Shown here one piece after another: positions 1-37,827 of a DNA stretch of 64,000 bases. The DNA lies in contig MTMD02000008.1 of NCBI GenBank assembly GCA_002010065.2, positions 224,001 to 288,000 of the forward strand, given 5' to 3'. The position numbers were made by a program, and so were the translations under genes. The stretch is from Candidatus Pyrohabitans jungbluthii. Lineage in GTDB: Archaea > Hydrothermarchaeota > Hydrothermarchaeia > Hydrothermarchaeales > BMS3B. The stretch's first letter is position 1. Every line of letters begins with the position of its first letter. The notes below the pieces were generated by a model. That model had not been told where the DNA came from, searched no databases, and saw nothing but the letters and a program-made list of their open reading frames with translations.

Positions 1-849
1 CAGGTTATTGTCGGATTCTCAGCGCCTGAAGATAAGAGAGGAGCCTACCTGGGCGCCTACTTTACCCTTGCCGCCCTCGGCTCGAGCATTGGCTACGCCC
101 TCTACGGTTTTCTGCCCCTGAGCAGCACCTACCTTATACTCACCGGTGCTGCACTCTATGCGCTCTCCGCAGTGGTTGCAGCTTTTCTGTTTTCTACCTC
201 TTACACCCCTGAGAAATATTTTGAGCATAGGAGGAAAAGGGATAAACTCCGTTTGAGCAGTTTTCCACCTCTTACAATATGGGTTTTGATGATTTCTTTT
301 GCAACAGGAGGAGTTTTAGGGCTGATGAATGAATATCTCTACATCTTTCTCTACGAGGTGCACAGTTTAACAAGAAGTGAGCTGGGATATGTGCTTACGC
401 TTGCAACGCTTCTGGGTGTTTTCAGCGGCATCCTTTCAGGTTTTCTGTCAGACAGATTTGGCATCAAGAATGTTCTGGTTATAATTCTGTTGCTATCCTC
501 CGTCGGTCTATTTTCCCTTGCAGTCTCACCGAGCAGGTTAATTGTTGCTCTTTCGCTTGCCGCTGTACTTCTGGCAGGTAAGGCAACATTTCCCATTACA
601 CGCAACATCGCTGTGGCAGGAAACTGGGCTTTTGCAGGCACCGTCGTGGGTCTCTCCAATACCTTCTCCAACGCAGGCTCGGCGATATTTCCGCTGATTG
701 CGGGGTATATTTACGATGCTTTTGAAGGTGAAATTATATTCGGGATAGATGGACGAGCGATGCCGCTGATTTTGTCTTCGCTCGCGGTGCTTTTCCTGGC
801 TGTTCTTTCACCTCTCGCAAGAGAAAGGAAATATCGAGAGAAACCATAG
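1..849 (+). CDS. MFS transporter, 5'-truncated by window edge
   Basis: Frame 1 is open from base 1 (QVIVGFSAPEDKRGAYLGAY...). Multiple TM helices and MFS motif A (GFLSDRFGIK). Confidence 0.85.
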   Translation, partial: QVIVGFSAPEDKRGAYLGAYFTLAALGSSIGYALYGFLPLSSTYLILTGAALYALSAVVAAFLFSTSYTPEKYFEHRRKRDKLRLSSFPPLTIWVLMISFATGGVLGLMNEYLYIFLYEVHSLTRSELGYVLTLATLLGVFSGILSGFLSDRFGIKNVLVIILLLSSVGLFSLAVSPSRLIVALSLAAVLLAGKATFPITRNIAVAGNWAFAGTVVGLSNTFSNAGSAIFPLIAGYIYDAFEGEIIFGIDGRAMPLILSSLAVLFLAVLSPLARERKYREKP

Positions 850-910
850 CATTTTTTCTGACCCTATGAATAGCTTTATCTGCTCTAACTATATCCTCCT
901 ACGCCAATTT

Positions 911-1321
911 CTAAAGAAATCCCGATATAACTTCCTCAACATACAATCCTTGAGCCGGTTTAAACAAACTGAGGATTATGAGGGGCAGAAATACTATAAT
1001 CCTCAGAGATAGAGGGTTAAGCAACACCATCCCGGCAACAGCCAGCTTCTTCAGCCCGCTGGGGATTTTCTCCCTTCTCCAGCGGTATTCTAAAAGCACA
1101 ACCACAGAGCAAACGAAAGGATAGTAGATGATTGCGCTAAAGAGATAGGATACCACCAGAGTTATGAAGGGCAGCTTAGGTGGCGCGACGACCTCTACTT
1201 CGGGTGGCACGAACAGGTGAAGCCAGAGGTACCCTGAAAGCTCAATCAACCCCGGAAAAGCCAAGGCGGCGATAACCTTTTTTCTGTCAGGTTTGAGAAG
1301 CTCAGCTATGGCGGAGGTCAT
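911..1321 (-). CDS. Hypothetical membrane protein, possibly C-terminally truncated
   Basis: 136-aa ORF with 3-4 hydrophobic segments. Ends in GLYVEEVISG, resembling the start of a PDZ domain. Confidence 0.5.
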   Translation of the reverse strand: MTSAIAELLKPDRKKVIAALAFPGLIELSGYLWLHLFVPPEVEVVAPPKLPFITLVVSYLFSAIIYYPFVCSVVVLLEYRWRREKIPSGLKKLAVAGMVLLNPLSLRIIVFLPLIILSLFKPAQGLYVEEVISGFL

Positions 1322-1442
1322 GATTCATCCGCCTCTAAAATCCTGGTGGTGGATAAACATCAGAGAACTGCTTTTATGTGTTCCTACCTCCTTCTCTTAA
1401 CGGGATCTCTTCTCTAAAAGGATTGTTATAGTAAATATAAAT

Positions 1443-2119
1443 TCATACCTTATATTTTCTTTGCCAGAGATCCTTAACTAAACTTAAAACTTCATAAAAT
1501 CTTTCTTTGCCCTGTTTTATGTTCTCTTCCGGTTTCACGCGTGGATAAAAACTTTTTCCCAGGTCTTCTATCGCAAATAAAAATTCTTCAAACTGCACTA
1601 CAGCATGATATGGGTTTTGTCTAATTACGACTTCAAGTATCACCTTATCAGAAGGTATCCAGCTAAATATTGGCTTCATGCTTGAACTCACCCATTTTCC
1701 CTCTAACCATTTTTCAAAGTGTTGTATAGTTTTTTGCTTAGGTTCAAATTTGTTAATTTTAGCAATAGCAGAATAAAGTTCTGCAAAATTCTCTGCTAAG
1801 GCATCAGAAGAGGTATATTTTCCCAGCCCCGAGAGATAAAATGGAGAAGGATGAAATATTATTTTAATATTTTGCTTATTAAGCAGCAGGTCAATTTTTG
1901 GAGCGGATACCCTGAACCCAATAACACATAGCTTTTTCCCTTATCTAATACTTCTTTTAGTCCAACTATAAAATCAATAGGATTTATTTTCACTTGCGCA
2001 ACAATCTCCTTATTATTTTCATCAATTAGTTTCATTATAATTGGAAAACCCTCTACGTACTCATACCCTTCACTTATATCGTACTCTTCCAGCGCCGGTT
2101 CTAATTTTATCTTTTTCAT
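1443..2119 (-). pseudogene. Putative immunity protein split by a -1 frameshift near 1931-1940
   Basis: ORFs 1859-2119 and 1443-1691 join through a stop-free alternative frame (GKKLCVIGFRVSAPKIDLLLNK...) that starts at GGGAAAAAG. The ATG overlaps the TGA of the upstream toxin remnant. Confidence 0.55.
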
Positions 2120-2250
2120 AAGCAAGCCCTCGGTTTTAGTAGGTTACTAGGATTTACTTCATAATACTTTATTCCGGCTCCACACTTTTTACATATTTCA
2201 TTTAATCCAGCAATGTAAGTTGTTATAACACCGTTTTTACCTAATATACA
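2116..2250 (-). pseudogene. Orphan toxin C-terminal remnant
   Basis: Start-less 44-codon frame CILGKNGVITTYIAGLNEICKKCG...KPRACL*. GVITTY parallels GNVQTAY of the neighbouring toxin. Its TGA overlaps the next ATG. Confidence 0.5.
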
Positions 2251-2251
2251 G

Positions 2252-2659
2252 TTATTTAAGCTTCAAATACTTTTTATATTTTTCAAGATATTTTTCCTTC
2301 AACTTTGATGAAGGGTCCCGCCCGTCCTTGATTTTAATGACCTTCTGAATTGCAGAAGTAAGCTCGTTCACAAAATCTTTATAAGGAACACTTACTATTA
2401 AATCTCCCTCATTGAAATCGAGATATATGTTATCTTTCTTTCGCTTAATTTTGATTGAACAATAGGGTCCTAAAAAGGTATTAAATTCTTGCCTGTTATT
2501 CAAGTCTTCTAAAATAGTGAGAAGCTCACGCAAAGACCCATAACATGTAATACTCTCATCGTTTAAAATGATTTTTATTTCTAAATCGTCTGGAACAATA
2601 AAAGTATCCCACCCTCCGTCAACATTTTTAACCTTAATCCTCACTGGTTTAATCATCAT
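2252..2659 (-). CDS. Putative immunity protein
   Basis: 135-aa AT-rich ORF translationally coupled (ATGA overlap at 2656-2659) to the toxin domain. Confidence 0.6.
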   Translation of the reverse strand: MMIKPVRIKVKNVDGGWDTFIVPDDLEIKIILNDESITCYGSLRELLTILEDLNNRQEFNTFLGPYCSIKIKRKKDNIYLDFNEGDLIVSVPYKDFVNELTSAIQKVIKIKDGRDPSSKLKEKYLEKYKKYLKLK

Positions 2660-3274
2660 ATGACTCCCTCAACGGGTACCGGGACAATTTTATTTTTCTC
2701 ATATATCTTTTTAAATCCAGTTTGTCTTAAAATATGTCTAATTGCCCAGTCATCTGAATATCTATTTATATTCCTTCCCGGCATTGGAATATATGCAGTT
2801 TGAACATTACCGTTAGCATCAACAAAAACTACAACAATATATCCGCCCAACTTCTTCACATACATCCGATAACCATTTGCATCCTCATAAATTTCATCAG
2901 GATTTTCGATAACATCTCTGATGGTATCCTCTACTGATTTTTTTATCCTTTCCAATTTCAGGATGTTTTTTAATGATCTTTTCAATAGTTTCGTCATTTA
3001 AATTAACTTCTCTGCCCTGAGGATCATGAATTATAATCGCTCGATTAATAACTATATTAACCACAACATATACCCCTACCGCAACAGCCGCGACTATTAT
3101 CACTTCTGGTGCGAGTAGCGAAGCAATAATCTCTGCCAGCGTAGCGGAGGATGTTACTGTCACACCTCCAACCACTACCCACAGCGGAACCATTGAAGAA
3201 AGCTCTGGATCACTCGGATTCGTCAGTGTAATTGTTATCTCTGCAATATTGTTATCTTCTCTAAGCTCGTCAAC
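2656..3274 (-). pseudogene. Orphan polymorphic-toxin module: CARDB-like tail, hydrophobic segment, BECR/PBECR-like RNase; frameshift in A7 run at 2938-2944
   Basis: Joined frame reads VDELREDNNIAEITITL...WVVVGGV...AAVAVGVYVVV...KHPE...VIENPDEIYED...YVKKLGGYIVVVFVDANGNVQTAY. Confidence 0.65.
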
Positions 3275-3329
3275 TTATGCAGGGCTTCACTGTCTCAACA
3301 GAGACTTAGCCTTTCCATTCCTGAAAAAC

Positions 3330-4091
3330 TCAGGAATGGGTTTCTCGTTCTCTAATGATTAATTCTCGCCTTAAGTTGATACGTGTTTTGAAGTCGCCAA
3401 GTTTTTTAAAAATTTCCGGATTCTCTTCAACATAAAATACGCCTTTTTCATATCCGCTAACAACTAATTCCTCAACGAAATCCTTAACAAAATAATTGTA
3501 GTCGAGTTCATTAATTATGGCAAGCGCTCCCTGCTTGCTTTTTCCTAAATATTCCTTGGCTTTATTACAGTGTTCTAATGCGTTCTCGTATTCCTTGAGC
3601 TTTTGGTAAACCATAGCAAGCATTTCGCAATAGAGGCCGGCATCACCGTAAAATAGTTTGTTAGTTGCAGCTTTCCTCTCATAACTTCTTAATTTGATAT
3701 CCAAAAAGTCAATTACTTTTTGATAAATTTTTTTAGCTTGTTCTTTTTTATTTAATTGTGAGTAGATATCACCAATTCTTTTTCTTGTCCAGTTTATATG
3801 AAATTCTATTCCTGGAGCTGTATATGTTTCTTCTGTAAGTGCAAATACAACAATACTTTTTTCATACGCTTCTATAACTTTTTCAAAGAGTTTCTTCGCT
3901 TCTTCTAATTTTCCCATTTTATTATAACAAAATGCAGCTGCTTTAAAAAATTCAGCAGCCCATATATATCCAAGATAGCTGTCTTCAGCATCTTTGTATT
4001 CCTCTTTTGCATACTCTAAGTATATCTTTGCTGCCTTTTCATACTCTCCTTTTTTTTCATATTGAGCAGTATTCACATTTTTATTTGTCAT
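3330..4091 (-). CDS. TPR/alpha-helical repeat protein, candidate immunity protein
   Basis: 253 aa with repeated A-A-x-x-Y/F helical-repeat patterns, GGAGAGG RBS, AT-rich. Confidence 0.7.
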   Translation of the reverse strand: MTNKNVNTAQYEKKGEYEKAAKIYLEYAKEEYKDAEDSYLGYIWAAEFFKAAAFCYNKMGKLEEAKKLFEKVIEAYEKSIVVFALTEETYTAPGIEFHINWTRKRIGDIYSQLNKKEQAKKIYQKVIDFLDIKLRSYERKAATNKLFYGDAGLYCEMLAMVYQKLKEYENALEHCNKAKEYLGKSKQGALAIINELDYNYFVKDFVEELVVSGYEKGVFYVEENPEIFKKLGDFKTRINLRRELIIRERETHS

Positions 4092-4101
4092 TTTTCCTCT
4101 C

Positions 4102-4305
4102 CTAACAACCTATGTTCTCAGGCACGACCCCTATTTTTGGATCTCTCAATGCCTTTTCCAAATTTTGATCTATTCTGCCCTTATATTTCGTATAATCTTG
4201 GTTTTTTAGCCACCTTGCTATTTCTTTCCACTTTTTTGGGCTTTTTAGCCCTTCTTTTCATGAAAGCCTTCCATCCTACTATCCTCTGCCCTCTATAATC
4301 AACCG
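4102..4305 (-). pseudogene. Basic start-less gene remnant, probable toxin C-terminus, frameshifted in an A6 run
   Basis: Joined frame SVDYRGQRIVGWKAFMKRRAKKPKKWKEIARWLKNQDY...VVPENIGC* ends 10 nt before the TPR gene start. Confidence 0.35.
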
Positions 4306-4400
4306 ATATTTATACTTTTTTGGAAATTTCCTTCAAATAAATCGAACAATTTCAATTTAGTAACCTTCTGTTATTGTAGCAAATTTACAATAACCATCTT

Positions 4401-5501
4401 CTACAACTCCCACCTCTTAAATACCCTCAGCTTAAAGCAGGAAAGCTGCGGCTTTTGTATGCCTTTATACTGCACCAGAACCTTGAAAATCTCACCCATG
4501 CTGCCCGGCATTATGAGCCTCTTCAGCGGTAGAAGCGTTCTGAGATAGGCTTCTTCTCCCTTCTCCTCCCGAAGCTTCAGCATCTCCTGCTCCAAGCCAA
4601 GACCGAGCAGAAAGCTTGCTAAGTCTGTGAAGCCCGCCACCTTTAGCTTAGCCTTCTCGCCAAAGTGCGCCAGCGCCGAGAAGTTCACATGTGAGGTAAT
4701 GTCCTGCTCACCTATGTTGACGTAAGGGTTGGCGATGGCGCGGTGGCGGTGGTAGCACATCAGCGTGCCCGCGCTGCGATAGCTTGCGTAAAGCTCACTG
4801 CTCGGATAGCCGTAGTCTATTGTGAGCAGAAAGCCGCGCTTCAGCACCTGCGAAACCTCGCCGAGCCAGCGCAGTGCTTCCAGGTTAACCTCCGTGCGGA
4901 AGCCGTCGGGAAGGGCAACGCCCAGCTCGCGGAAGTAGCTCTTGAGCTCATCCCCAGCCGGCATCAGCACCTCCTTAAACCCATTTTCGTCAAGGGTAAC
5001 GTACACCTCGTGAAGCTCGCCCTCTCGCACTTCCACCACATGCACGGGAAAAGCGTCCACGAGTTCGTTGGAGAAGATGCATCCCTCCACTTTGCGAAGC
5101 TCTCGCAGAGATTCGACGATCTCCACGCTGTAGTCTTTAAGTGCTGAGCGCTGCATGCGCCTCATGCTGGGAGAACGCTCCACTATGACGTAGCGTACCT
5201 CGCAGCTCAGCGAAGAGAGCACATCCCGGGCGAGCGCACCAGTGCCCGCGCCCATCTCCACCAGGGTAAACTCATCGCTTTCGAGAAGGTGACGCATCTC
5301 CTCAAACTGTTTGGCAAGCATAACGCCGAAGAGGCGGGAAACGTTGGCTGCGGTGAAGTAATCTCCCTGCTTTCCTATCTTCTCCTTCGCTGAGCAATAG
5401 TAGCCATAGCGCTCGTGGTATAGTGCAAGCTCCATGAAGTCCCGGAAGGGTATTGCACCTCGCTTCCTTATCTCCTCTACTATAACCTCGCGCGCACTCA
5501 T
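4401..5501 (-). CDS. SAM-dependent methyltransferase, MidA/NDUFAF7 family
   Basis: Motifs FRDFMELALY..GYY, GDYFTA, EMGAGTG, SNELVDAFP, IDYG, GEQDITSHVNF. Confidence 0.9.
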   Translation of the reverse strand: MSAREVIVEEIRKRGAIPFRDFMELALYHERYGYYCSAKEKIGKQGDYFTAANVSRLFGVMLAKQFEEMRHLLESDEFTLVEMGAGTGALARDVLSSLSCEVRYVIVERSPSMRRMQRSALKDYSVEIVESLRELRKVEGCIFSNELVDAFPVHVVEVREGELHEVYVTLDENGFKEVLMPAGDELKSYFRELGVALPDGFRTEVNLEALRWLGEVSQVLKRGFLLTIDYGYPSSELYASYRSAGTLMCYHRHRAIANPYVNIGEQDITSHVNFSALAHFGEKAKLKVAGFTDLASFLLGLGLEQEMLKLREEKGEEAYLRTLLPLKRLIMPGSMGEIFKVLVQYKGIQKPQLSCFKLRVFKRWEL

Positions 5502-6121
5502 TGCAACCTCGCCTTACCCACGAGCGTTGAGAAGGTTATCTTCCCCCCACCCTCTTTAAAGTACCTGAGCAACCTCTCCCATTTCTCCGGATTCCACTTC
5601 CTCTTAAAGCTGATGAAATAGGTTAAAGCGTCCTCATAGGAATCAAAGTAAACAACCTCCTTCTCCACCAGCAGGTGCTCCACAGCAAACCCATTTTCAG
5701 CGAGGAGCGTCTTCATCCTCCGCCTGGAGTACGCGAATCTAGAACGCCACCCTATCTCCTTAAGGTTCTCCTCCTCTATGCACGCGAAGCACAAGCACTC
5801 CCCCTGCTCAAGCGCCTCCGCCGACTTAACCACGACTGCATCGTCCATAAAAAAGTGTGCCGTAACCATGTCTGGAGCAAAGGCAGAGTAATCGCACTTC
5901 AAAGCGTCGCAGGTGCAGAAGGCCACATTTGTTATGCCCCCGCGTTCAGCCTTTCTTTTCGCTTCCTCAATCGCCTCTTCCGCAACATCTATCCCCACAA
6001 CAAAACCTGCGAGAGGGGCAAGCTTCAGCGCAAGCGCCCCGCTCCCACAGCCCACATCTAAAATGCGCATACTCGCAAGAGTCTCTTCTCTGATAAGCTC
6101 CAGAAGCTTTTGATTTACCAT
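5498..6121 (-). CDS. Class I SAM-dependent methyltransferase
   Basis: ILDVGCGSG motif I; coupled to the downstream methyltransferase. Confidence 0.85.
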   Translation of the reverse strand: MVNQKLLELIREETLASMRILDVGCGSGALALKLAPLAGFVVGIDVAEEAIEEAKRKAERGGITNVAFCTCDALKCDYSAFAPDMVTAHFFMDDAVVVKSAEALEQGECLCFACIEEENLKEIGWRSRFAYSRRRMKTLLAENGFAVEHLLVEKEVVYFDSYEDALTYFISFKRKWNPEKWERLLRYFKEGGGKITFSTLVGKARLQ

Positions 6122-6269
6122 AGTAAAGTAGCACAAAACTACCGAAGTAAGGTTTTGTAAATTTTTAGAAAGAAACCTCTCACGGTTTCATTAAAAATGA
6201 AACCACACTCAAAAACAGGCGAAAGATTTATCTTTAATGAGGTGGAATCAAATTGTGAGGTGATTATTT

Positions 6270-6470
6270 ATGGGAGAACTGCCAGTATCTGCATGCGGTA
6301 GAATAATAAGAAACGCAACAAACATGCGCGTGGGAAGAGACGCTGCTGTTGTTTTAGCTGAGATGCTTGAGGAGATAGGTGAGGAGATAGCCTCAGAGGC
6401 AGGGAAACTGGCTAAACATGCAAAAAGAAAGACAGTGAAAGCCTCTGATATAAAACTGGCTATTAAGTAA
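6270..6470 (+). CDS. Archaeal histone (HMf family)
   Basis: 66 aa, MGELP...RIIR...RV..DA...[15 protein letters not shown]; GAGGTGA RBS. Confidence 0.95.
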
Positions 6471-6495
6471 ATTATGGAATCTACGTCACCCGGAA

Positions 6496-7296
6496 CTATG
6501 TCCCGGGTAACCAGGCACCCATTACATCGTCTCTATCTATTATCCCCACTACTTTTTTATCTTCTGCCACCGGAAGGCGGCCTATCTGCTTTTCAACCAT
6601 AATTTTCCCAGCTTCGCGTACATCAGTTTCTTTGTAAACTGTAACCGCCGGCGTCGTCATTACCTTCTCAACGCTTGGCGGATTTCTGGCTTTGCCTTTG
6701 TCACCCTCCCGCGATATCCTCGCAAATCCCGAGTCTATTATATCCTTTCTGGTAATTATTCCGATTATCTCCCCATTTTTAACCACAGGCATGCCGGAAA
6801 AGCCGGTGTCGTCCATTTTCGCCCAAACCTTGGTTACAGGGTCGTCGTAGCTGCAAGTCACAACCTCTTCTGTCATGATGTCCACGACCCTCTTTTTGAT
6901 GGGCTCATGTCCACTCTCAAGAAGTGCTTTGATGATGTCGTGAGCACTTATTATCCCACGAAGGGTTGAATCCGTAGCCGAGGCGACCACTGGCAGGCGC
7001 TCTACATCCATACGTATCATCCTATCTGCCGCGTCCAGGATGCCCTCCTCCGGCAGAGCGGTAGCCACGCTTGTTGACATTAGCCCGCCCACGAGGAGAT
7101 TTGACCTGCTGGAAGATATCCTCATTATATCTCCACGGGTTATTATCCCTATAAGCCTGCCGTCGCTGTCAACCACGGGAAAGCTCCTGTATCCGTAGTC
7201 TCTGAAGAGAGCTCTAGCCTTCGTGGCTGGTTCATCCTCATGCACAGTTACCACGCTGGTGGTCATTACGTCTTTAACCTTCGGAAGCTCGCTCAA
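6496..7296 (-). CDS. CBS-domain protein (4 CBS repeats)
   Basis: Repeated VMT...PVVD...GIIT..DI motifs. Confidence 0.9.
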   Translation of the reverse strand: MSELPKVKDVMTTSVVTVHEDEPATKARALFRDYGYRSFPVVDSDGRLIGIITRGDIMRISSSRSNLLVGGLMSTSVATALPEEGILDAADRMIRMDVERLPVVASATDSTLRGIISAHDIIKALLESGHEPIKKRVVDIMTEEVVTCSYDDPVTKVWAKMDDTGFSGMPVVKNGEIIGIITRKDIIDSGFARISREGDKGKARNPPSVEKVMTTPAVTVYKETDVREAGKIMVEKQIGRLPVAEDKKVVGIIDRDDVMGAWLPGT

Positions 7297-7308
7297 CTTG
7301 ATGCCCCC

Positions 7309-7863
7309 TCACTCACCCATGAACTCTTCCTTGCAGCTCTCGCACACAAAAATACCGTTCACCTCGTAGAGGGTTACGCCGAAGTCACCGCAGTTCTCAC
7401 AGGTGCCCTTCTCTGGCACTTCCTTGGGCATGCCCTCGCCCTCCTGCTTCATTGCCACAAGTTCGCGAAGCACCTCTATCTGCTCAGGGGCTATGGCGAG
7501 TATATCTTTGTTGGTGATTATCCCCACAAGCTTCCCGTTATCTATAACAGGAAGTCGGCGGATGTTGTACTTTGCCATTATCCTTGATGCTTCTGTGAGG
7601 GTTTTATCTGGCGAAATGGTGCGAAGATTTTTGCTCATTATGTCCTTAACCTTTACAAGAGAGGGTTTCAGATCAGTGGCAGCGACGCAGTAGGCAACAT
7701 CTCGCTCTGTAATAATGCCTATGGGCTTCTCTCCCTGAACCACTACCACGCTTCCTATATTGTTGTCGGCCATAAGCTTAGCTGCTTCCTGAACTGTGGC
7801 ATTTGCATCGATGGTTACCACGGGTCGGGTCATAGCTTCCCTGACCTTGACCTCTGTATCCAT
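7309..7863 (-). CDS. CBS-pair protein with C-terminal zinc ribbon
   Basis: CBS motifs plus CENC...CESC; start MDTEV after a GGAGGT RBS. Confidence 0.9.
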   Translation of the reverse strand: MDTEVKVREAMTRPVVTIDANATVQEAAKLMADNNIGSVVVVQGEKPIGIITERDVAYCVAATDLKPSLVKVKDIMSKNLRTISPDKTLTEASRIMAKYNIRRLPVIDNGKLVGIITNKDILAIAPEQIEVLRELVAMKQEGEGMPKEVPEKGTCENCGDFGVTLYEVNGIFVCESCKEEFMGE

Positions 7864-7935
7864 AGCTTTACCTCCTTCTACGATTGTGGATTTATGTATG
7901 GGATATAAATATTTTGTTCTCAGAAATATAAAAGC

Positions 7936-8418
7936 ATGCATTTCGTTGCAGATGCAATGCTTGGGAAGCTCGCAAGATGGCTCCGCCTCAGTGGTTACGA
8001 CGTTTATTATAGCAGGAGCGCTGAGGATGAAGAATTGCTGAATGTGGCACAGCGCGAAGGGAGAGTGCTTCTAACGAGGGACACGACGCTTGCGGAGAAG
8101 GCGAGGAAGCTGGGGACTAAGGTGGTGCTGGTAGAGAGCAACTCTATTGAGGAGCAGCTCATCCAGCTTAGGAAAGAGCTTGGGTTAAGCTATGAGAAGA
8201 CGCCTGCAAAAGCGCTTTGTCCAGAGTGCAACGGTGAGATTTTGGAGGTGAGCAAGAGCGAGGTCTCTGAGCTCGTGCCTCAGGGCGTGCTTGAGGCTCA
8301 CGAAGAGTTCTACCGCTGCTCGCAATGCGGCAAGGTTTACTGGCACGGCTCCCACTGGCGGAGCATAACCAAAAGGGTGGTGAGAATTGAGGGCAAAGTA
8401 TCGTCTTCCGAGAAGTGA
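7936..8418 (+). CDS. Mut7-C (PIN-like) RNase domain protein
   Basis: FVADAMLGKLARWLRLSGYD, LLTRD, CPECN...CSQCGKVYWHGSH. Confidence 0.9.
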   Translation: MHFVADAMLGKLARWLRLSGYDVYYSRSAEDEELLNVAQREGRVLLTRDTTLAEKARKLGTKVVLVESNSIEEQLIQLRKELGLSYEKTPAKALCPECNGEILEVSKSEVSELVPQGVLEAHEEFYRCSQCGKVYWHGSHWRSITKRVVRIEGKVSSSEK

Positions 8419-8770
8419 CATCGTGGTTAGAGCAGCGCGGGATGTGATCAAAAAAAGAGGGGAGGTTAATTCTCTGGCTCAGATGCACACCCTGGTGCTG
8501 GAGAGGCTGAAGAGGGAAAATCCAGAGTACAGGCTTTCTAGAGCGAGGCTGCTCAAAATCCTTGCTCTCTCGCCGAAGGTGAGGATTAAGGTAGAGAAGC
8601 GCAAAGCAAAGCGAAACCCTGCGCTCTGCCCATTGTGCGGCTCAGAAATGGAAGACCTCTACGGTGTTGACCTTTTCGGCAAAAAGGTTAAGCTCGGTAA
8701 GAGGTGCGTAAACTGCGGATACCGCGTTGAGAGGAGACTGGAGCCAAAAAGGTATGTATTCTACATTTGA
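8387..8770 (+). CDS. Hypothetical basic protein with zinc ribbon
   Basis: 127 aa, CPLCG...CVNCG. Confidence 0.7.
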   Translation: MRAKYRLPRSDIVVRAARDVIKKRGEVNSLAQMHTLVLERLKRENPEYRLSRARLLKILALSPKVRIKVEKRKAKRNPALCPLCGSEMEDLYGVDLFGKKVKLGKRCVNCGYRVERRLEPKRYVFYI

Positions 8771-8835
8771 GCTGAAAGCGGTTAAAAGCGAAAGCCATAT
8801 ATATGCACCCATCGGCAGAAATTCTTGGGGTTTAA

Positions 8836-8976
8836 ATGAAGCTTAAATTCAGATTGATAGACGTGCTCAGGGCAAAATTGGGGGAAACGGAGGATATAGA
8901 TAAAGAGCTTATTGACAGGTTTGAGGATATTGAGAAGAGTCTGGAGAGGGGAAGCTGGCGCATCGTAGCACCTTAA
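8836..8976 (+). CDS. Small hypothetical protein (46 aa), not in the ORF track
   Basis: MKLKFRLIDVLRAKLGETEDIDKELIDRFEDIEKSLERGSWRIVAP; TATA-like ATATATAT about 35 nt upstream. Confidence 0.45.
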   Translation: MKLKFRLIDVLRAKLGETEDIDKELIDRFEDIEKSLERGSWRIVAP

Positions 8977-10058
8977 AGCAATTCTCTCAGCGCCGCTATA
9001 AACCTCCTGTTTTCCTCAGGCATGCCCACGCTCACCCTTATGTAGCGGGCATCTAAGCCCGGGAAGGACTCACAGCCTCGCGTAATAATCCCGCGTTTCA
9101 GCAGCTCTTCAGCTAAGCCTAGTTTTTCTACCCTGAAAAGCACAAAATTCGCCTGTGAGGTGAAAGCCTTTATGCCTGGAATTTTCCTCAGCTCCTCTAC
9201 GAGGTATTTTCTGCCTTCTCTGACAATATCAACACTCTGCTTTAGAAATTCTTTGTCTTCAAGCGCCGCCATAGCTGCAACCTGCGCTAAGAGGTTGACG
9301 CTGAAGGGCTGCCTCACGCGCGCGAGGTAATCTATAACCTTCTCACTTGCAAGGCAGTAGCCCACGCGGAGACCGGCTAATCCAAAAGCCTTTGAAAAGG
9401 TTCTCAGCACTATTAGGTTCTCGTGGTGTTTGACAAGGTGGGCAAAGCTTGTGCCTGCGAATTCGGCATATGCCTCGTCAAGAATCACGATTGCCTCTTT
9501 TTCAAGTATTTCCCTGAGAAGCGCCTCAGGGATTAAATTTCCCGTAGGGTTGTTGGGCGAGCAGAGAAAGAGTAGCTTCGCACGCGTAGCTGCGTTGAGC
9601 AGGGCTTCGGCATCGAAGGCATATTCAGTGTCGCCCTCTTTAAGCGGCACTTCAATGCATTGCGAGCCGTACATTGTGATGAGAATCTGGTAGTAGGAGA
9701 ATGTGGGCGGCGTGATAATCGCAGAGTCGCCGCGGGAAAGGAAAACCTTTGCGCACTGCTCCATCACGTCGTCGCTGCCGTTGCCCACGAGGATGTTTTC
9801 CGCGGGTAAGCCGATGTAACGGGAAAGCGCATCCCGTAGCTCTCCCGCAAGGGCATCTGGGTAAATGTTTACCTTTGCAGCGTGGGTGCGAATCGCCTCT
9901 ATTGCTTTTGGCGATGCCCCGAGAGGGTTCTCATTGGAGGCGAGCTTGATAATCTTCTCCTCTGGCAGAGAGTAGGCTCTTGCGATTTCGTCGATGCTCT
10001 TGCCGGGGATGTAGGGGGGCACGCGCTTTATCTCTTCTTTCACCAGCTTTTCTATCAT
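8973..10058 (-). CDS. hisC: Histidinol-phosphate aminotransferase
   Basis: KLASNENP, GNGSD, SPNNPTG, DEAYAEF, RTFSKAFGLAGLRVG. Confidence 0.95.
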   Translation of the reverse strand: MIEKLVKEEIKRVPPYIPGKSIDEIARAYSLPEEKIIKLASNENPLGASPKAIEAIRTHAAKVNIYPDALAGELRDALSRYIGLPAENILVGNGSDDVMEQCAKVFLSRGDSAIITPPTFSYYQILITMYGSQCIEVPLKEGDTEYAFDAEALLNAATRAKLLFLCSPNNPTGNLIPEALLREILEKEAIVILDEAYAEFAGTSFAHLVKHHENLIVLRTFSKAFGLAGLRVGYCLASEKVIDYLARVRQPFSVNLLAQVAAMAALEDKEFLKQSVDIVREGRKYLVEELRKIPGIKAFTSQANFVLFRVEKLGLAEELLKRGIITRGCESFPGLDARYIRVSVGMPEENRRFIAALRELL

Positions 10059-32409: not shown

Positions 32410-32736
32410 ATGATAACTCTTCAAGTTATTGACGATATCGTCTCTGAAATAAAGAAATTTCTTCTCAAGCATTACGGAGAAAAGATAAAGAAGGTTATCG
32501 TTTACGGCTCTTTTGCGAGAGGCGAAGCCACACCTGATTCTGATATTGACCTTTTAGTTGTGGTTGATGATTCTCTTGATCCAAGGAAGGTCGAAGAGAA
32601 GCTCGATGATCTACTATTTGAGATTTTGCTGAACAGAAAGGAGCTAGTTTCTGTTATTGCAGTTAAGGAGACGATGTTTGAAAACTACAGGTCGCCTTTA
32701 CTGCTGAATGTAAAAGAAGAGGGCATTACAGTATGA
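32410..32736 (+). CDS. Minimal nucleotidyltransferase (MNT) antitoxin
   Basis: YGSFARGEATPDSDIDLLV. Confidence 0.9.
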   Translation: MITLQVIDDIVSEIKKFLLKHYGEKIKKVIVYGSFARGEATPDSDIDLLVVVDDSLDPRKVEEKLDDLLFEILLNRKELVSVIAVKETMFENYRSPLLLNVKEEGITV

Positions 32737-32820
32737 GAGAAGTGGACGACCTCATTAATAAGGCAAAGAGGTTTTTGAGAACCGCCGAGCTTGCCTTTAA
32801 TGACGGTGACTACGATTCCA
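32733..32820 (+). pseudogene. HEPN toxin N-terminal fragment
   Basis: MREVDDLINKAKRFLRTAELAFNDGDYDS matches a HEPN start. The rest of the 89-aa ORF is antisense to the next gene. Confidence 0.7.
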
Positions 32821-33027
32821 CTAAATCGGATATAATCTCTCTAATTTCTCTGAAAACCCCTCAATATCTGGCTTCTCACAATATTTATGCATTTCAGGAT
32901 TTTCAACTGGATGCTTATGCCAGCCACCAAGATTATCATACCCAAATGTCCTTTTTCCTTCCATTATTAATGCAAAGTCAATTATCATTTGAAGAATTAT
33001 AGTAAATATCAAAATATAAACGTTCAC
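32821..33027 (-). pseudogene. Degenerate DUF6516/TumE-like toxin
   Basis: FGYDNLGGWHKHP motif; short, apparently damaged N-terminus; GTGA overlap with the upstream gene. Confidence 0.55.
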
Positions 33028-33335
33028 GAAATTTTATTCTCATTAAGCAGTTCGAGCCACCTCTCTTTTTCCATCTCCAGCGCTTCCCATTCTATGTAAT
33101 CTGCCTCCACTTCATGGGAATATTTGTCTTTTATCTCCCCGGCTTCCCATGCATGTCGAAATTCTTCAAATTTCATCCTATATTTTGATTCAAAGTTTGC
33201 AATCAGCTCGTTGCATTCTTTTATTTTTGATTTTATTACTTATCTTGCGAGATTGCCCAGTTTTTCGCTATAATCTCGCTCTGTAAATAAATCAAGGATA
33301 TTTCTTGTTTTTTCATCAATAGTAAGTGTGACCAT
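33024..33335 (-). pseudogene. Antitoxin-like gene with in-frame TAA at 33240-33242
   Basis: MVTLTIDEK...LAR*VIKSKIKE...FESKYRMKFEEF...DYIEWEALE. Confidence 0.65.
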
Positions 33336-33369
33336 TTTAGAACACCTCAACATTTCTAATTTATGTTTT

Positions 33370-33560
33370 TAGTTTTTAAATTCATTAATTTTAACCTCAA
33401 AAGCAATTCATCAAAGCTCTGTGGCTGCCTCAAGTCTACCTCGCCAAATTCATACCTGAAAAAGTGAATCCCCTCCTCTTTAATCCTCCTCGGCACGCTC
33501 TCGGCTATCAGCACACCCGCAACGCACTCCTCGCCGAGGATTACGAAGTTTTCTGGCTGG
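33370..33560 (-). pseudogene. C-terminal gene fragment, possibly a PD-(D/E)XK nuclease tail
   Basis: Start-less frame PENFVILGEECVAGVLIAESVPRRIKEEGIHFFRYEF, core-like base composition. Confidence 0.35.
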
Positions 33561-33650
33561 ACATGTCATAGGGTTTTGTATGTTAGATTAATAACCGTTA
33601 GTTTTTTAAGTAAGTTAAAAATATGATTGATAATATAGGGGGTATGGAAT

Positions 33651-34379
33651 ATGCCATTTACATCAAGATTCATTTGCATGTCCCCAAGAGAGACACCAAG
33701 TATAGAAGAAATACGAAGAATTATTGAAGAAAGAGATGTTATAAAAAGTAAAATAGAAAATGAATTTAAATTGGAATCTTGGATAAAACTTTCACCTACT
33801 TTAGTTTCTTATAAAGATGAAAAATTTTTAGAAGGTGTTATATTCCACCAACACATCCAAAAAATACCAGATTATGTAAGAAAGGGAAGAGATATAGAGG
33901 AGATCTATCAGCCTATAAGAAAAACTAGTAAAGTTCGGTTTTGGTTTTCATCAAATCCAGGAGTCGTTTTATTTAATAATAGGCAGAATGGAAACACTTT
34001 TGGGAGAAGGATCTTATCTTTAGCTATATTTAACATTGAAGATCGCATTCTTCCAGTGACTTTTAGGATTTCCGACATAGAAAAAGATTATTATGAGACT
34101 GTATGGACGCATAGTTTCCAGAATAGACAAGGGAATATAATTAAAGGTCAACATTATGGAAATCAAATAGTAAATGATCCTATGTATGGAGAAACAATAG
34201 GAGCGCCAAGAAACTTTATTGGTGTTCTTTCTAGTTCGACGAATCCTGCATTTAAGGTTAGAATTAATAGAAATGGCGTAATTACAATTTTCAAAGATTT
34301 AAATGACCCAGCAGAACTACCAACAGTATTCAGAATTATACATGAATTTTTACCTTATTCAGTTGCTACTTATTACTAG
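33651..34379 (+). CDS. Hypothetical protein (AT-rich island)
   Basis: 242-aa ORF with GGGGGT RBS; no family recognised. Confidence 0.7.
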   Translation: MPFTSRFICMSPRETPSIEEIRRIIEERDVIKSKIENEFKLESWIKLSPTLVSYKDEKFLEGVIFHQHIQKIPDYVRKGRDIEEIYQPIRKTSKVRFWFSSNPGVVLFNNRQNGNTFGRRILSLAIFNIEDRILPVTFRISDIEKDYYETVWTHSFQNRQGNIIKGQHYGNQIVNDPMYGETIGAPRNFIGVLSSSTNPAFKVRINRNGVITIFKDLNDPAELPTVFRIIHEFLPYSVATYY

Positions 34380-34390
34380 TAGAGATAAAA

Positions 34391-35056
34391 TTAGTAAATA
34401 AGAACAATATATTTTTTAACAGCTTCTAGTACATTTAACAAGTTTTTAGAATTTATCTGAACTGTTTTTTTGCCTACAATTACATCAAGATCGAGTTGTT
34501 CATCTTTTATTCTTTTCTTTTCGAACCAATATTCATCTTCAGGTTCTTTTTTGATTTCTATATTTACATTTGTAAATTTTGGTGTTTTACTGATATGTTT
34601 TTCCAGAATTTCAATTATTCTCTCTATTCGGTTTAGGTATTTTCTAGTATATTCATCGTCTCGAAAGTGACAGGTTATAAAACCTTTTAGTTTTATTAAC
34701 ACTTCCGTATTATTAATATCGGTATTGGATGGTATCTCAGCAGAAAGAGATTCTAAATCAATTTCTGGATGAAGTTCAAGCGTTATAGGGATTTGCAGGT
34801 CTTTATACCAAACTTCTAGATGGTTTTCATTGTATATTATTTCCTTAACAGGAAATATCTCCCTAAAATCTCTGTGGATAGTTCGAAAATCTATATTATA
34901 CAATCCAATATAGATTCTCGTAACCTTAAGATAAAGTATAAATTTAGCATTTTTTATCCAAAGATAAAATTTTTTGTAGCTAAATTTAACTATTCTATAA
35001 ATTCTTCCAAGAATTTTCTCTAATATGATTTGAGAAATAATCTCCCAAATACTCAT
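34391..35056 (-). CDS. Hypothetical protein (AT-rich island)
   Basis: 221-aa ORF with amphipathic N-terminus and GGAGA RBS. Confidence 0.65.
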   Translation of the reverse strand: MSIWEIISQIILEKILGRIYRIVKFSYKKFYLWIKNAKFILYLKVTRIYIGLYNIDFRTIHRDFREIFPVKEIIYNENHLEVWYKDLQIPITLELHPEIDLESLSAEIPSNTDINNTEVLIKLKGFITCHFRDDEYTRKYLNRIERIIEILEKHISKTPKFTNVNIEIKKEPEDEYWFEKKRIKDEQLDLDVIVGKKTVQINSKNLLNVLEAVKKYIVLIY

Positions 35057-35229
35057 ATATACAATTTCTCCTATACCTTCTCTGTTTTGGTTTGGTGCTA
35101 TTGTTAGATTCTTAAGTTACTATTAATTCATAATCTTTACCCCTCAAATAGGTAGTATGCCTAATATTTATATAGTAATTATGTAATAATTATATTAAAA
35201 TGTAACAATTGGTAATGGTGGTTGGAAAA

Positions 35230-35361
35230 ATGAACAAAATAAAGATGCAACCTAAAGAAGCGAGATGTCTAAACTGTGGTTCAACCTCACTTAAGTACAG
35301 GAAAAGGTTTGATGATTTTGTATGTCTTAAATGTGGTGATATTTTTGTACCAATGATGTAA
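35230..35361 (+). CDS. Small zinc-ribbon protein (43 aa), not in the ORF track
   Basis: MNKIKMQPKEARCLNCGSTSLKYRKRFDDFVCLKCGDIFVPMM; GGTGG RBS. Confidence 0.7.
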   Translation: MNKIKMQPKEARCLNCGSTSLKYRKRFDDFVCLKCGDIFVPMM

Positions 35362-35380
35362 ACAGACCTAAATTTATAAT

Positions 35381-35644
35381 TTATTTTGTTAATTTACTAA
35401 TCTCATTTAGTATTTCCTTTCCTTTTTTTGTGATTGTGTAGAGTTTCATTTTTCTCCTTTCAGGAGTTAAACACATTATCAGATTTTTATCTTCTAATTC
35501 TTTTAATGTTTTGCTAACGTGACTTCTGGGCACTTTTAGAGAAGATGCCAAATTTGACGGTGTCTTTTGTGAATTTTTCAATTCTACTAATATTCTAAAT
35601 CGAAGTTTTCCAGACATAACGAAACTTATAGAGTTCCAATCCAT
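35381..35644 (-). CDS. Winged-helix transcription regulator
   Basis: TPSNLA...SHVSKTLKELEDKNLI...YTITKKG. Confidence 0.85.
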   Translation of the reverse strand: MDWNSISFVMSGKLRFRILVELKNSQKTPSNLASSLKVPRSHVSKTLKELEDKNLIMCLTPERRKMKLYTITKKGKEILNEISKLTK

Positions 35645-35734
35645 GCTTACACAATATTTATTACGATATTTTAAATTAGTTATACAATTTTGTAATTAAA
35701 CATTTAATCACCTTTTTCAAAAATGTTATGAATC

Positions 35735-36289
35735 ATGGACTTAAGTGACCTAATTGGTCCTAGAAAACCACCTAATATAGGAATTTCCCCAAAAAAATAT
35801 CGTGAAACATATATAAAGTCACCATCAGAGGATGAAGTATCAAAATTTTCTGAAAATCCGCGTAACGCTTATGGAAAATGGTATGAGCACGTTATAAATG
35901 AACAAATACGTAAAATTTGTTCAAAACGAAGATGGAATTTTGATACACATGTGGATATGGGATATAGCAAAGTTTATCTAAGCAAGCGATATGCTGATAT
36001 TGTAGTAAATGGTGAATTAGGATTAGAACTAAAATTTCTTAAAGGTGGAGGTTCTCTTATAAAACCGAAGTGTCTTGTTGATGCTATTGATTTTTCAAAT
36101 CGTCCTATTGATACGATATATTTAATTGATGGAGAGGGGTGGCTTATAGGTAAGAAAGTAAAATACATAGAATATTTGAATAAGTGGTGGACTTTTACCA
36201 ATTCTGCAAATCTCGAATATTCATTGGTTAAATATTTTAATAAAAAGAAAAATAGGAAAAAAACCAAAAAATATAAAATAAATTTTTAA
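35735..36289 (+). CDS. PD-(D/E)XK nuclease, DpnII-like
   Basis: GKWYE...ADIVV...LELKFLKGGGS...LIDGEGW parallels DpnII catalytic motifs. Confidence 0.65.
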   Translation: MDLSDLIGPRKPPNIGISPKKYRETYIKSPSEDEVSKFSENPRNAYGKWYEHVINEQIRKICSKRRWNFDTHVDMGYSKVYLSKRYADIVVNGELGLELKFLKGGGSLIKPKCLVDAIDFSNRPIDTIYLIDGEGWLIGKKVKYIEYLNKWWTFTNSANLEYSLVKYFNKKKNRKKTKKYKINF

Positions 36290-36376
36290 ATCTAAGTTCT
36301 CAAACATTTAGTAACATATTACTTATGATTTTTTGTAATCATTATTTTAAACTGCTTCTCAAGCATAATTGCATTG

Positions 36377-36934
36377 ATGCGTATCGAAGAAGCGTATCAA
36401 TTATTAAGAAGACTAGCTCCTAGGCAGAGAATAGAAGTATACAAAGGCTTTGATGGCACAATTATAACAGCTACAAGAACAGATAAAATATGTCCACATG
36501 ACTTCGCAGTTGGATTGGTAATACCTGGAAGAAGAGAATTTTACCCGACGCATGTGAGACTTCTTTTTGACCTTTACCTGAAAAGGATAACTGACGGTGA
36601 AAATGCAAAAAAGCTGTTCTGTGCACTTGAAGACGTTTTTAGAGGAGAAGATCCTGAAAAGTTGGCAAAGGATTTTGAAGGAGTTAAGTTTAGGATGCAA
36701 TTAGATAATTGCGATGTCAATTTGTATTATGCTCAACTTTTAATGATTGAGCAGGATTTCAATTATGGAAAAGATGGATGTAAAAGCAGCAAATATAACC
36801 CTGCAAGAACTTACCTAATGGGATATATAAGATGGGTTGCTTCTGGAGACGATGAAATAGATAAAATCATAACAGGAGCTGTTCGAAACTATCCACCTCG
36901 AGTGAAATATATAGAGCCATTAGATTGTGAGTGA
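36377..36934 (+). CDS. Hypothetical protein convergent with the Dam-type methyltransferase
   Basis: 185-aa ORF; PTH..LLFDLYLK and LMIEQDFNY motifs. Confidence 0.7.
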   Translation: MRIEEAYQLLRRLAPRQRIEVYKGFDGTIITATRTDKICPHDFAVGLVIPGRREFYPTHVRLLFDLYLKRITDGENAKKLFCALEDVFRGEDPEKLAKDFEGVKFRMQLDNCDVNLYYAQLLMIEQDFNYGKDGCKSSKYNPARTYLMGYIRWVASGDDEIDKIITGAVRNYPPRVKYIEPLDCE

Positions 36935-37777
36935 GTAATTTTCATAATTTAAAATTACTAACTCGTTAATAGCTCCTCTCTTATCAGCTTTACTATTAAT
37001 AGCTCTTCTTGCTTTTACTTTGTGTATTTTCAATCCATCATAACTATATAGATTTTTAATAAACTCCGTGTCACTATTACTTAGCATAAGTAGACAACCT
37101 CGTTCATCAAGCTTTCTATAAACTTCTGCAAGTTTTCTTTGCTCATCATCTAAGAAAGCATCCTTGGTATAACTTGTGAAATTGGCGGTTTTGGAAAGGG
37201 GGTAATAAGGTGGGTCAAAATATATAAAATCCCCGCTTTCTGCATCTTCTAATACCTTTTCAAAAGATTGAAGTTTAATAGTTACTCCCTGTAATAACTT
37301 GTGAGCTTTTCTGAGATTTTCCTCATTTACAATATTTGGGTTTTTATATCTACCAAAAGGAACGTTAAATTTTCCTTTAGAATTGACACGATATAAACCA
37401 TTGTAGCATGTTTTATTTAAATATAAAAATCTGGCAGCCTTCTCTACGTCTGAAAGTTCATTTACATCAATTTCTCTTATCTTATAATAATACTCTTTGC
37501 AGTGGTTTCTTTTATGTACCTTTAATAGCTTTATCAATTCTTCTAGATTATCCCTAACCACTATATAAGTATTTATCAAATCTTCGTTGTTATCAGAGAT
37601 TATAACTTTTTTTGGATTGTATTTTCGTTTTATATAAAAAAATACTGCTCCACTTCCCACAAAAGGTTCAAGATAACCATTAAACTTCTTAGGAAAGAAT
37701 TTCTTAAATTGATCAAGAAGCTGAGTCTTTCCGCCAGCCCACTTGACAAAAGTTGGGACTGTATTATTTCGAGGCAT
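36920..37777 (-). CDS. Dam-family DNA adenine methyltransferase
   Basis: KWAGGK, EPFVGSGAV, NGLYRVN..GKFNVPFG, DPPY, LSNS. Confidence 0.93.
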   Translation of the reverse strand: MPRNNTVPTFVKWAGGKTQLLDQFKKFFPKKFNGYLEPFVGSGAVFFYIKRKYNPKKVIISDNNEDLINTYIVVRDNLEELIKLLKVHKRNHCKEYYYKIREIDVNELSDVEKAARFLYLNKTCYNGLYRVNSKGKFNVPFGRYKNPNIVNEENLRKAHKLLQGVTIKLQSFEKVLEDAESGDFIYFDPPYYPLSKTANFTSYTKDAFLDDEQRKLAEVYRKLDERGCLLMLSNSDTEFIKNLYSYDGLKIHKVKARRAINSKADKRGAINELVILNYENYSLTI

Positions 37778-37827
37778 GATTGATCTATTACACAACAATT
37801 AAAATGTTTCTACTCCTATATACTATC

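Follow-up and report, generated by a model that had tools for sequence, protein, structure and literature searches.

An AT-rich island near the start of the analyzed window of Candidatus Pyrohabitans jungbluthii is probably a horizontally acquired, decaying fragment of an archaeal polymorphic-toxin locus, i.e., of an array of toxin-tip/immunity cassettes. The window, by which we mean the whole 64,000-nucleotide stretch that was analyzed, is C8:224001-288000 of a host genome of 1.99 Mb in 15 contigs that is 99.95% complete. The island spans about 1400-4400 within a variable stretch at 850-4400. Its guanine-plus-cytosine (GC) content is 0.31 to 0.34 (about 32%), compared with 0.50 to 0.58 in the flanks and 0.49 to 0.53 in all contigs (∼51% genome-wide). 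The minus strand carries three open frames that lack a start, each with a partner gene behind it; all genes lie on one strand and are tightly packed. This AT-rich minus-strand layout had been set out in a preliminary description made from the sequence, and the open frames were found in the places given there. Of the three modules, only the middle one is established. It couples a toxin gene broken by a frame change to an intact gene for a 135-residue immunity protein, here called ImmB.

A frame-broken RNase toxin domain in the middle module

The elements of the middle module, in the order in which they are read, are as follows.

3224..3274, minus strand: 17-residue remnant VDELREDNNIAEITITL, the end of a beta-rich, probably surface-exposed domain, preceding the toxin tip, with a stop codon directly before it
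3029..3193, minus strand: hydrophobic segment of ∼55 residues (residues 28 to 82 of the first frame), with an ATG at 3193
2939..3028, minus strand: RNase toxin domain, N-terminal part (HDPQGREV...KKHPEIGKDKK), with the conserved Lys-His
2938..2944, minus strand: A7 run with a one-base reading-frame change, the break in the toxin gene
2656..2937, minus strand: RNase toxin domain, C-terminal part (SVEDTIRDVIENPDEIY...GNVQTAY...), closed by a TGA at 2656-2658
2252..2659, minus strand: ImmB, the intact 135-residue immunity gene, whose ATG overlaps the toxin stop

The motifs follow one another as VDELREDNNIAEITITL, the hydrophobic stretch, and then KHPE...NPDEIY...YVK...GNVQTAY, spread over two frames that meet in the A7 run; the second toxin frame overlaps the end of the first and continues from 2937. 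The hydrophobic segment contains one clear membrane helix (residues 58 to 76, Kyte-Doolittle 2.95), preceded by a weaker hydrophobic stretch. The full toxin tip has no start codon of its own.

We scored these pieces against a family profile built from eight homologues, with the window sequences left out and 1000 shuffles as a control. The tail of the first frame (2939-3028) reached 29.5 bits, a score attained by 0/1000 shuffles, and the 113-residue frame piece at 2659-2997 reached 99.2 bits. The two pieces match adjacent parts of one profile, and a read-through of the toxin with X at the break scored 129 bits as one domain covering profile positions 4 to 130 of 135. The window keeps 17 of the 20 most conserved columns, including the His. 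This residue, His104 of the read-through (motif KKHPE), is conserved in seven of the eight homologues, and a Lys or Arg precedes the invariant His of the family. In the closer homologues (P0003, P0005, P0008, P0009, and L013), the pattern DP.G..v.LP...IEKI..KHPEiGQ..EEv.etV..IieNPDEvY runs uninterrupted across the position of the break. These comparisons establish that 3028-2939 and 2937-2656 are parts of one frame-broken domain of ∼125 residues, predicted to be an RNase of the PBECR/BECR type.

The frame change in the A7 run is real and not an assembly slip, because it recurs both in G001, another assembly from the genus, which aligns to the window over 5740 bases with no gap, and in the independent run X8, whose contigs cross the run without difference. 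A contig of run X7 does the same; this run is possibly the source DNA, so it is not counted as independent. We give hardly any credence to the idea that transcriptional slippage or ribosomal frameshifting on A7 overcomes the change, so that a membrane-anchored toxin is made from the ATG at 3193 and the module is alive. That ATG does open a frame through the hydrophobic segment up to the break, which sits in a homopolymer run; the rest of the domain is uneroded, and the sequence is identical across the assemblies seen. Nevertheless, no homologue requires a frame change, the sequence ahead of 3193 shows no clear ribosome-binding site, and the island is too recent for its state of erosion to be informative, with 0 differences between the genome of the window (G000) and G001 within it.

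Gene callers miss the toxin gene, and the protein database covers it with only a 99-residue piece (P0001). A tblastn match of the toxin piece at C14:15040-15195 (E 0.035) was judged spurious, as the frame there is incoherent.

A coupled immunity family

The stop of the toxin piece and the start of ImmB share an ATGA at 2656-2659. In all three distinct contexts available (the window, L011/L012, and L013), the toxin is followed by a homologous gene of 135 to 137 residues with the same 4-nucleotide overlap on the toxin stop. Comparison of ImmB with the L013 protein gave E 2e-9 at 26% identity over 76 residues, and the L013 and L011 immunity proteins (136 to 137 residues) match each other at E 2e-15. 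A direct comparison of ImmB with the L011 protein was not significant, and the homology runs via L013. Alone, ImmB retrieved only itself from 5.8 billion clusters and has no Pfam match at cutoff; a three-sequence ImmB profile retrieved 10 proteins of 104 to 142 residues, none with a Pfam domain or a name. The invariant residues of this family are G-W, P-D, and S. The partner gene of the third module (ImmC, below) was considered as an ImmB relative and rejected (hhalign probability 0.07).

The AlphaFold2 model of ImmB (predicted local distance difference test [pLDDT] score, 83.8; predicted template-modeling [pTM] score, 0.80) has a Whirly/PUR-like double beta-beta-beta-beta-alpha fold. A VIA search with it placed Pur-alpha (Z 6.1) and MRP1/2 (5.8) at the top; NMB0503, an immunity protein of Neisseria, and the CdiI of B. 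dolosa followed at 5.7 each, then the CdiI proteins of E. cloacae (5.6) and STEC_O31 (5.4).

Co-folding of toxin and partner, which the preliminary description had proposed, was run on the intact homologous pair from L013 (toxin residues 178 to 312 plus the immunity protein) with shallow custom alignments. The pair scored 0.89, compared with 0.16 for the best of three controls; a mark of 0.89 is attained by 116/157 solved complexes and by 2/215 mismatched pairs. Contact agreement between runs was at least 96%, and partner pLDDT was at least 91. On the immunity side, the confidently predicted contacts involve Pro19-Asp20, Gly63, and Asp80, and on the toxin side Lys209-His210, Thr265, and Pro269. 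The invariant Pro19-Asp20 of the immunity family would thus be placed over the conserved Lys-His of the toxin. This modeled complex favors binding, short of demonstrating it. Taken together, the conserved coupling, the family homology, and the predicted complex give good support to ImmB as the cognate immunity gene of the middle-module toxin.

The preliminary description thus held for this module: the motif string that it listed is present, split over two frames meeting at 2938-2944; its proposal of a BECR/PBECR-fold RNase with a coupled downstream immunity gene is supported by homologues, structure matches, and the predicted complex; and the toxin is, as it said, missed by the track of open reading frames (ORFs).

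Homologues, architecture, and predicted fold of the toxin

A HMMER search of 1.84 billion representatives with the 113-residue piece retrieved only 13 proteins at E≤0.001. The closest relatives of the window domain (40 to 46% identity) are C-terminal domains of proteins of 256 to 946 residues with VWA/TSP3 repeats. Several of them pass Pfam cutoffs. For PBECR2 (cutoff, 27.1 bits), P0003 scores 31.3 bits, P0005 and L011 score 32.3 to 32.4 bits, and P0026 scores 29.5 bits. P0009 passes three cutoffs, with 31.8 bits for PBECR3 (cutoff, 30), 29.5 bits for PBECR2, and 27.3 bits for Ntox35 (cutoff, 23.6). When the reference-genome contigs were scanned with the toxin alignment, a single locus was found, 100% identical to the window.

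The most complete architecture is that of L011/L012, where a 946-residue open frame comprises TSP3 repeats, VWA, a hydrophobic stretch rich in Gly, Ala, and Val, another conserved region, and the C-terminal toxin domain. P0026 (480 residues) and L013 (at least 312 residues, ended by the contig) resemble the L011 protein's C-terminal half, and hydrophobic stretches analogous to that of the window stand ahead of the toxin region in P0005, P0009, P0026, and L013. The toxin domain is thus the C-terminal-most domain of large proteins in L011, P0026, and L013, and the window copy keeps 17 upstream residues. As judged from these sequences, the window subfamily is a branch of the domain that is fused to putative surface proteins. 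In L011 (6680-7516), the toxin-immunity pair is followed by a 126-residue ORF and then by a 278-residue ORF that is transposase-like by eye.

For a structural view, we used P0006, a 141-residue homologue, whose AlphaFold2 model (pLDDT, 81.2; pTM, 0.78) consists of two helices (residues 21-28 and 42-54) followed by a four-stranded meander (strands 58-61, 67-76, 79-88, and 91-97). The BECR fold has been defined as a helical segment at the N terminus and, after it, a meander sheet of four strands (PMC3482391); it is the model of this homologue, not the broken window copy, that has this predicted form. The best Foldseek match of the model was 7m5f_C, the CdiA-CT toxin of BWH57 (E 0.011, probability 1.00). 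The VIA search also ranked 7m5f_C first (Z 7.5, root mean square deviation 3.6, 90 residues aligned), followed by 8ey4_A (Z 6.8), colicin D 5znm_B (Z 6.3), 7vd7_A (5.8), and CdiA-CT NC101, BrnT, YxiD, and colicin D 1tfk (5.3 each); lower matches were additional CdiA-CT and RelE chains. The weight of these model-based matches lies in the consistency of the list rather than in single Z values. A PDB sequence search with the toxin alignment returned VWA domains only and no BECR toxin.

The CARDB link and the search for a parent toxin gene

The preliminary description had linked the toxin to CARDB domains of surface proteins. The remnant VDELREDNNIAEITITL resembles the ending EKNESDNAASISVSV of a CARDB domain in a 1200-residue protein of the same genome. 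No Pfam CARDB match (PF07705) was found at E≤1 in the 125-residue piece, in which only 17 domain residues remain, and stops interrupt every frame just upstream of them. The remnant is like CARDB in its motif only and may derive from such a domain. Among the full-length toxin relatives, none has CARDB; they have VWA and TSP3 repeats instead.

A full-length parent toxin gene is absent from this genome. tblastn searches of the genome with the junction, hydrophobic, and toxin pieces returned the island itself only, and a search with the family profile returned the island plus one VWA-only match. The preliminary description had proposed a search of the genome and relatives for full-length CARDB proteins sharing the junction but differing in their C termini; no full-length relative with the junction was found. 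Because no full-length gene has the junction or the toxin domain, there is no target for cassettes to swap into.

These results bear on the preliminary description's central proposal, an active reservoir: the cassettes would be maintained as exchangeable warheads, to be recombined into a full-length gene for a CARDB-scaffolded toxin elsewhere in the genome or the population. Such a reservoir would have the toxin-immunity pair layout described in Zhang 2012 (PMC3482391), where cassettes of this kind are toxin-immunity pairs; the 17 upstream residues and the hydrophobic segment of the middle cassette could act as a recombination handle, and most conserved toxin columns are intact. We nonetheless consider it improbable. 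Neither the junction nor the hydrophobic segment nor the toxin domain was found a second time in the genome, and each of its six CARDB proteins terminates in an ordinary membrane anchor or in some other domain. Both the toxin tip and ImmC carry frameshifts, with the same changes in G001 and run X8; the gene directly upstream of the island is a conserved methyltransferase gene and not a toxin body. With no recipient gene, two broken genes, and two of the three tips unverified, the proposal of swappable warheads is not supported.

Origin, site, and age of the island

A decaying, horizontally acquired fragment remains the reading that we favor. A foreign origin is indicated because the island has a low GC content, occurs in few genomes, is replaced by different content at the same site in G004, G002, and G003, and is identical in G001. 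The TPR gene and ImmC, partner genes in the other two modules, are present in 2 of the 38 genomes of the phylum (G000 and G001). In the congener G004, the transporter and methyltransferase genes that flank the site lie 405 bp apart, and in G002 and G003 different content adjoins the same flanking genes. The site between the two genes is a variable hotspot for small toxin-type cargo. At the G004 site (L004:1111-1454, G004:C51), the island is absent, and a 57-residue PIN-like C-terminal fragment and a 53-residue ribbon-helix-helix ORF are found. Decay is indicated because G001 and run X8 show the same frame changes, ImmC is broken, and no parent gene was found.

Compared with G001 (L003, G001:C40), the window shows 0 mismatches over 761-4514 and 92 over 4515-6404 (flanks 4.6% diverged). 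Because the island is identical and the next 2 kb is diverged, the island would have a more recent common history than its flank, provided that the G001 contig is not a chimera of strains. Either strains exchanged the island recently or the contig is chimeric, as the identity break suggests. The break between G000 and G001 falls within the 3' end of the methyltransferase gene.

No direct or attachment-like repeats were found flanking the island, and no tRNA genes lie within window positions 1-10000. An intergenic element marks the upstream edge.

4307..4376: 70-bp repeated intergenic element at the upstream island edge, with a TATA-like box on the minus strand that could drive transcription into the island

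Copies of this AT-rich element occur at C2:427548-427617 and C1:14864-14931, with a partial copy at C2:79465-79493 (78 to 86% identity), and in several contigs of congeners; an Rfam search with it gave no match.

Stretches with a GC content below 0.38 in 1-kb windows number 47 and are scattered genome-wide, with two more in the window at ∼32501-38000 and 53001-54750. Between the transporter gene and the AT-rich island, positions 911-1321 (minus strand) encode a predicted membrane protein of 136 residues with normal GC; this ORF is confined to G000 and G001 apart from a weak G030 match, and family searches returned nothing for it.

Fragments A and C and their partner genes

The remaining features of the island are listed below.

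4102..4309, minus strand: fragment A, two start-less frames (4309-4184 and 4257-4105) that overlap each other; the second has its stop at 4102-4104, shortly before the TPR gene
3330..4091, minus strand: intact TPR gene of 253 residues with a GGAGAGG-like ribosome-binding site upstream, a possible partner or immunity gene of fragment A
3314..3340, minus strand: hairpin with an 11-bp stem and a T5 loop at the TPR stop codon
2116..2262, minus strand: fragment C, an open frame of 48 codons with no start, its stop overlapping the ATG of the following gene
1443..2143, minus strand: ImmC, frameshifted pseudogene of a 227-residue protein, in pieces 2119-1862 and 1940-1446 (open frames 2143-1859 and 1940-1443)

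Judged by layout, the array probably includes two more cassettes, one formed by fragment A and the TPR gene and the other by fragment C and the broken 227-residue gene. The stop of fragment C and the ATG of its partner share an ATGA at 2116-2119; together with that of the middle module, this accounts for the two such overlaps that the preliminary description had reported, both of which were found as given. The TPR gene that it placed at 3330-4091 is likewise there, and its product exceeds the Pfam cutoffs for TPR_8, TPR_12, TPR_1, and others. The 3314-3340 hairpin is a possible transcription stop between module A with its TPR gene and the middle module (module B).

The frame change in ImmC lies near 1915-1925. 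An intact protein of 227 residues, P0024, is 73% identical to the second ImmC piece over 165 residues, and its N-terminal part matches the first piece by eye. Structural look-alikes of the 227-residue protein in the Atlas include three WapI immunity clusters, which fall below the bar of the tool and are a lead only. In a scan of viral_contigs (IMG/VR), from which records of this or a near genome may be left out, two stretches encode a relative of the TPR protein, though no locus was displayed; the same scan with P0024 found none. The island region may be filed as viral in IMG/VR.

That the frames are open is by itself weak evidence; their stop/start coupling to a partner gene counts for more. 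About five open frames of at least 44 codons are expected by chance per strand of an island-sized shuffle, and the chance that a frame of 44 to 51 codons is open up to a fixed end point is 0.01 to 0.02 in island composition. Scans of the island pieces with PADLOC and NCBIfam gave no meaningful match for any of them.

Evidence that weighs against a polymorphic-toxin origin

Several observations count against reading the island as the remains of a polymorphic-toxin locus. The first group concerns the toxin domain itself. The 113-residue window piece, which is without the N-terminal third of the domain, stays below the Pfam cutoffs (PBECR3, 23.0 bits with a cutoff of 30; PBECR2, 18.4 bits with a cutoff of 27.1). 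All fold matches, for the toxin and for ImmB, have a Z below 8, a range that the tool calls common, and Foldseek returned nothing at E≤0.001 for either model. The complex was modeled, with shallow alignments, for a homologous pair whose toxin is ∼41% and whose immunity protein is 26% identical to that of the window.

The second group concerns relatives in metagenomes, where 43 of 46 loci are stand-alone open frames of 69 to 154 residues (typically ∼105). At least 35 of these have a DUF2283-like ORF of ∼70 residues within 250 nucleotides downstream, with three more by eye. They carry the motifs H..RHPE, NPDEVY, and TAF/TAY and are 34 to 41% identical to the window domain over 50 to 65 residues; one example, L014, scores 27.1 bits for PBECR2, right at the cutoff. 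Judged by sequence, these numerous nearest relatives are not polymorphic toxins, and the domain appears also to serve in toxin-antitoxin-like pairs.

Together with the PIN fragment and ribbon-helix-helix ORF at the same site in G004, these pairs would fit a model in which the RNase piece and the 135-residue protein form an intracellular type II toxin-antitoxin module that stabilizes the island or acts in defense. We regard this as very improbable for the window. Its domain belongs to the same RNase domain family as the stand-alone proteins, which however have no surface or hydrophobic part and are paired with a protein of another family, of 70 rather than 135 residues. In the window, the domain is in frame with the hydrophobic segment and a surface-domain end, its closest relatives are the C termini of the VWA/TSP3 proteins, and only the toxin, not the partner, is broken. 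The arrangement seen in the window (domain fused to hydrophobic segment and remnant, partner of another family) is thus not that of a type II PBECR2-like/DUF2283-like pair.

Loci L014 to L056 contain the ∼105-residue PBECR2-like protein and the ∼70-residue DUF2283-like ORF on contigs with GC contents of 0.36 to 0.45. The PBECR2-like/DUF2283-like pairing looks undescribed or little described as a toxin-antitoxin pair.

The third group concerns the outer modules. Against the toxin profile, fragment C scores -2.1 bits, matched by 302/1000 shuffles, and fragment A (A2) scores -0.7 bits, matched by 277/1000 shuffles. Neither has a relevant match in Pfam, NCBIfam, or PADLOC; the sole entry for fragment C is DUF3839, below cutoff (E 0.16, 11.9 bits, cutoff 22). 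Open frames of 48 to 51 codons at a fixed end have a chance of 0.011 to 0.014 (A, ∼0.01; C, ∼0.014) and are only mildly improbable. The TPR protein matches generic TPR clusters only in the Atlas, and P0024/ImmC has no Pfam family. The count of three cassettes is a matter of layout alone, i.e., of strand, packing, and stop/start coupling. Fragment C (GKNGVITTYIAG...KYYEVN) had been a candidate for a diverged tip of the same toxin family and was rejected on its shuffle-like score. The claim of toxin-like C termini occurring three times in the preliminary description therefore stands for the middle module and not for A and C, which are shuffle-like and without a family match.

On this evidence, the island might hold one true module, with A and C as chance frames or debris and the TPR and broken 227-residue genes as unrelated cargo. 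We consider this unlikely, yet deserving of appreciable weight: the fragment scores, the number of frames expected by chance, the generic TPR matches, and the T5-loop hairpin that separates the TPR gene from module B all agree with it. It accounts less well for the placement of all genes on one strand in tight packing, for an overlap of the fragment C stop with the partner ATG exactly as in the middle module (with the fixed-end chance for 48 codons given above), and for the WapI immunity clusters, below the bar of the tool, among the look-alikes of the 227-residue protein.

Comparison with known systems

Archaeal polymorphic toxin systems with RNase tips have already been described computationally in Zhang 2012 (PMC3482391), and such systems were also described by Makarova 2019, as cited in PMC8416519. 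As of 2021, they were genome-predicted and without experimental characterization, according to PMC8416519. The island, read as a decaying fragment of such a locus, shares features with the following known systems.

Orphan cassettes of the contact-dependent growth inhibition (CDI; cdiA-CT/cdiI), Rhs, and MafB systems, as treated in PMC3482391, are alike in that a start-less tip retains an upstream piece and an immunity gene follows directly on the same strand; they also occur as several units in a row with AT-rich foreign content. In contrast to these, the window genome has no full-length toxin gene, its archaeal host has no known delivery system, one of three units is verified, and the toxin and one partner are frameshifted.

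With regard to PBECR2 (PF18810), PBECR3 (PF18812), and Ntox35, all predicted RNase toxin domains of the BECR fold, intact relatives of the window toxin pass the cutoffs, and the invariant family His after Lys/Arg resembles the H and KH of Ntox35. In its entry in Zhang 2012 (PMC3482391), Ntox35 is given a predicted BECR fold, a conserved H and KH, and an unknown immunity protein. Unlike these families, the window subfamily is rare (13 representatives) and has its own 135-residue immunity family, and the window piece itself is below cutoff.

The CdiA-CT/CdiI pair of Serratia marcescens BWH57 (7M5F) is the best structural match. Its toxin has a BECR RNase fold (119/120 residues modeled) with candidate active-site His residues covered by a 98-residue CdiI, as summarized in PMC8616854; the immunity protein thus covers catalytic-type residues, as is predicted here over the Lys-His. 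The 7M5F toxin bears no detectable sequence resemblance to the window toxin family, and the immunity proteins are unrelated, CdiI of BWH57 being a 98-residue alpha/beta protein and ImmB being modeled as Whirly/PUR-like.

VARTIG of the Thermococcales (Makarova 2021, PMC8416519) is likewise an archaeal polymorphic-toxin-like array. It has large surface proteins with Ig domains that resemble CARDB, a C-terminal motif containing DNN with hydrophobic regions close to it, and downstream genes that vary. By that paper's account, VARTIG lacks a recognizable toxin domain, whereas the window has a clear toxin domain and a CARDB link of 17 residues only. In addition, the DNN of the window precedes the hydrophobic segment (in VARTIG, as presented there, it comes after it) and lacks the GG of the DNNxxxGG motif.

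Implications

In the lineage from which the island came, a large surface protein would have displayed or released the toxin, which would have cleaved RNA in a neighboring cell, and the immunity protein would protect the producer by covering the Lys-His site. In the present host, the toxins would be dead; the intact ImmB, and perhaps the TPR gene, may still guard against neighbors with a live toxin. For annotation purposes, the island is best treated as foreign and the toxin and one partner as pseudogenes, and it should not be taken as an active antagonism system.

A broader proposal, which we put forward tentatively and hold to be rather unlikely as a whole, is that the 135-residue family is the first immunity family for toxins of the Ntox35/PBECR2 type, that the arrangement of surface repeats, hydrophobic stretch, PBECR RNase, and immunity gene constitutes a dedicated archaeal intercellular system, and that the island is retained in this host, and has recently spread between strains, for its orphan immunity. 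The GC content of the systems compared is 0.32 for the window island and 0.48 to 0.55 for the L011/L013 contigs. If the proposal is true, a dedicated toxin system would be common to very different archaea, and orphan immunity would guard against low-GC neighbors with a live toxin.

The kind of system described here is already known from comparative genomics, and the newly delineated immunity family is the most useful product of the analysis. Zhang 2012 (PMC3482391), in its treatment of Ntox35, gives no immunity protein; the 135-residue family would supply one, of the same or a related type. The intact pairs of L011 and L013 offer a compact testable set, consisting of a toxin domain of ∼125 residues and an immunity protein of 135 residues, with a confidently predicted interface over the putative active site.

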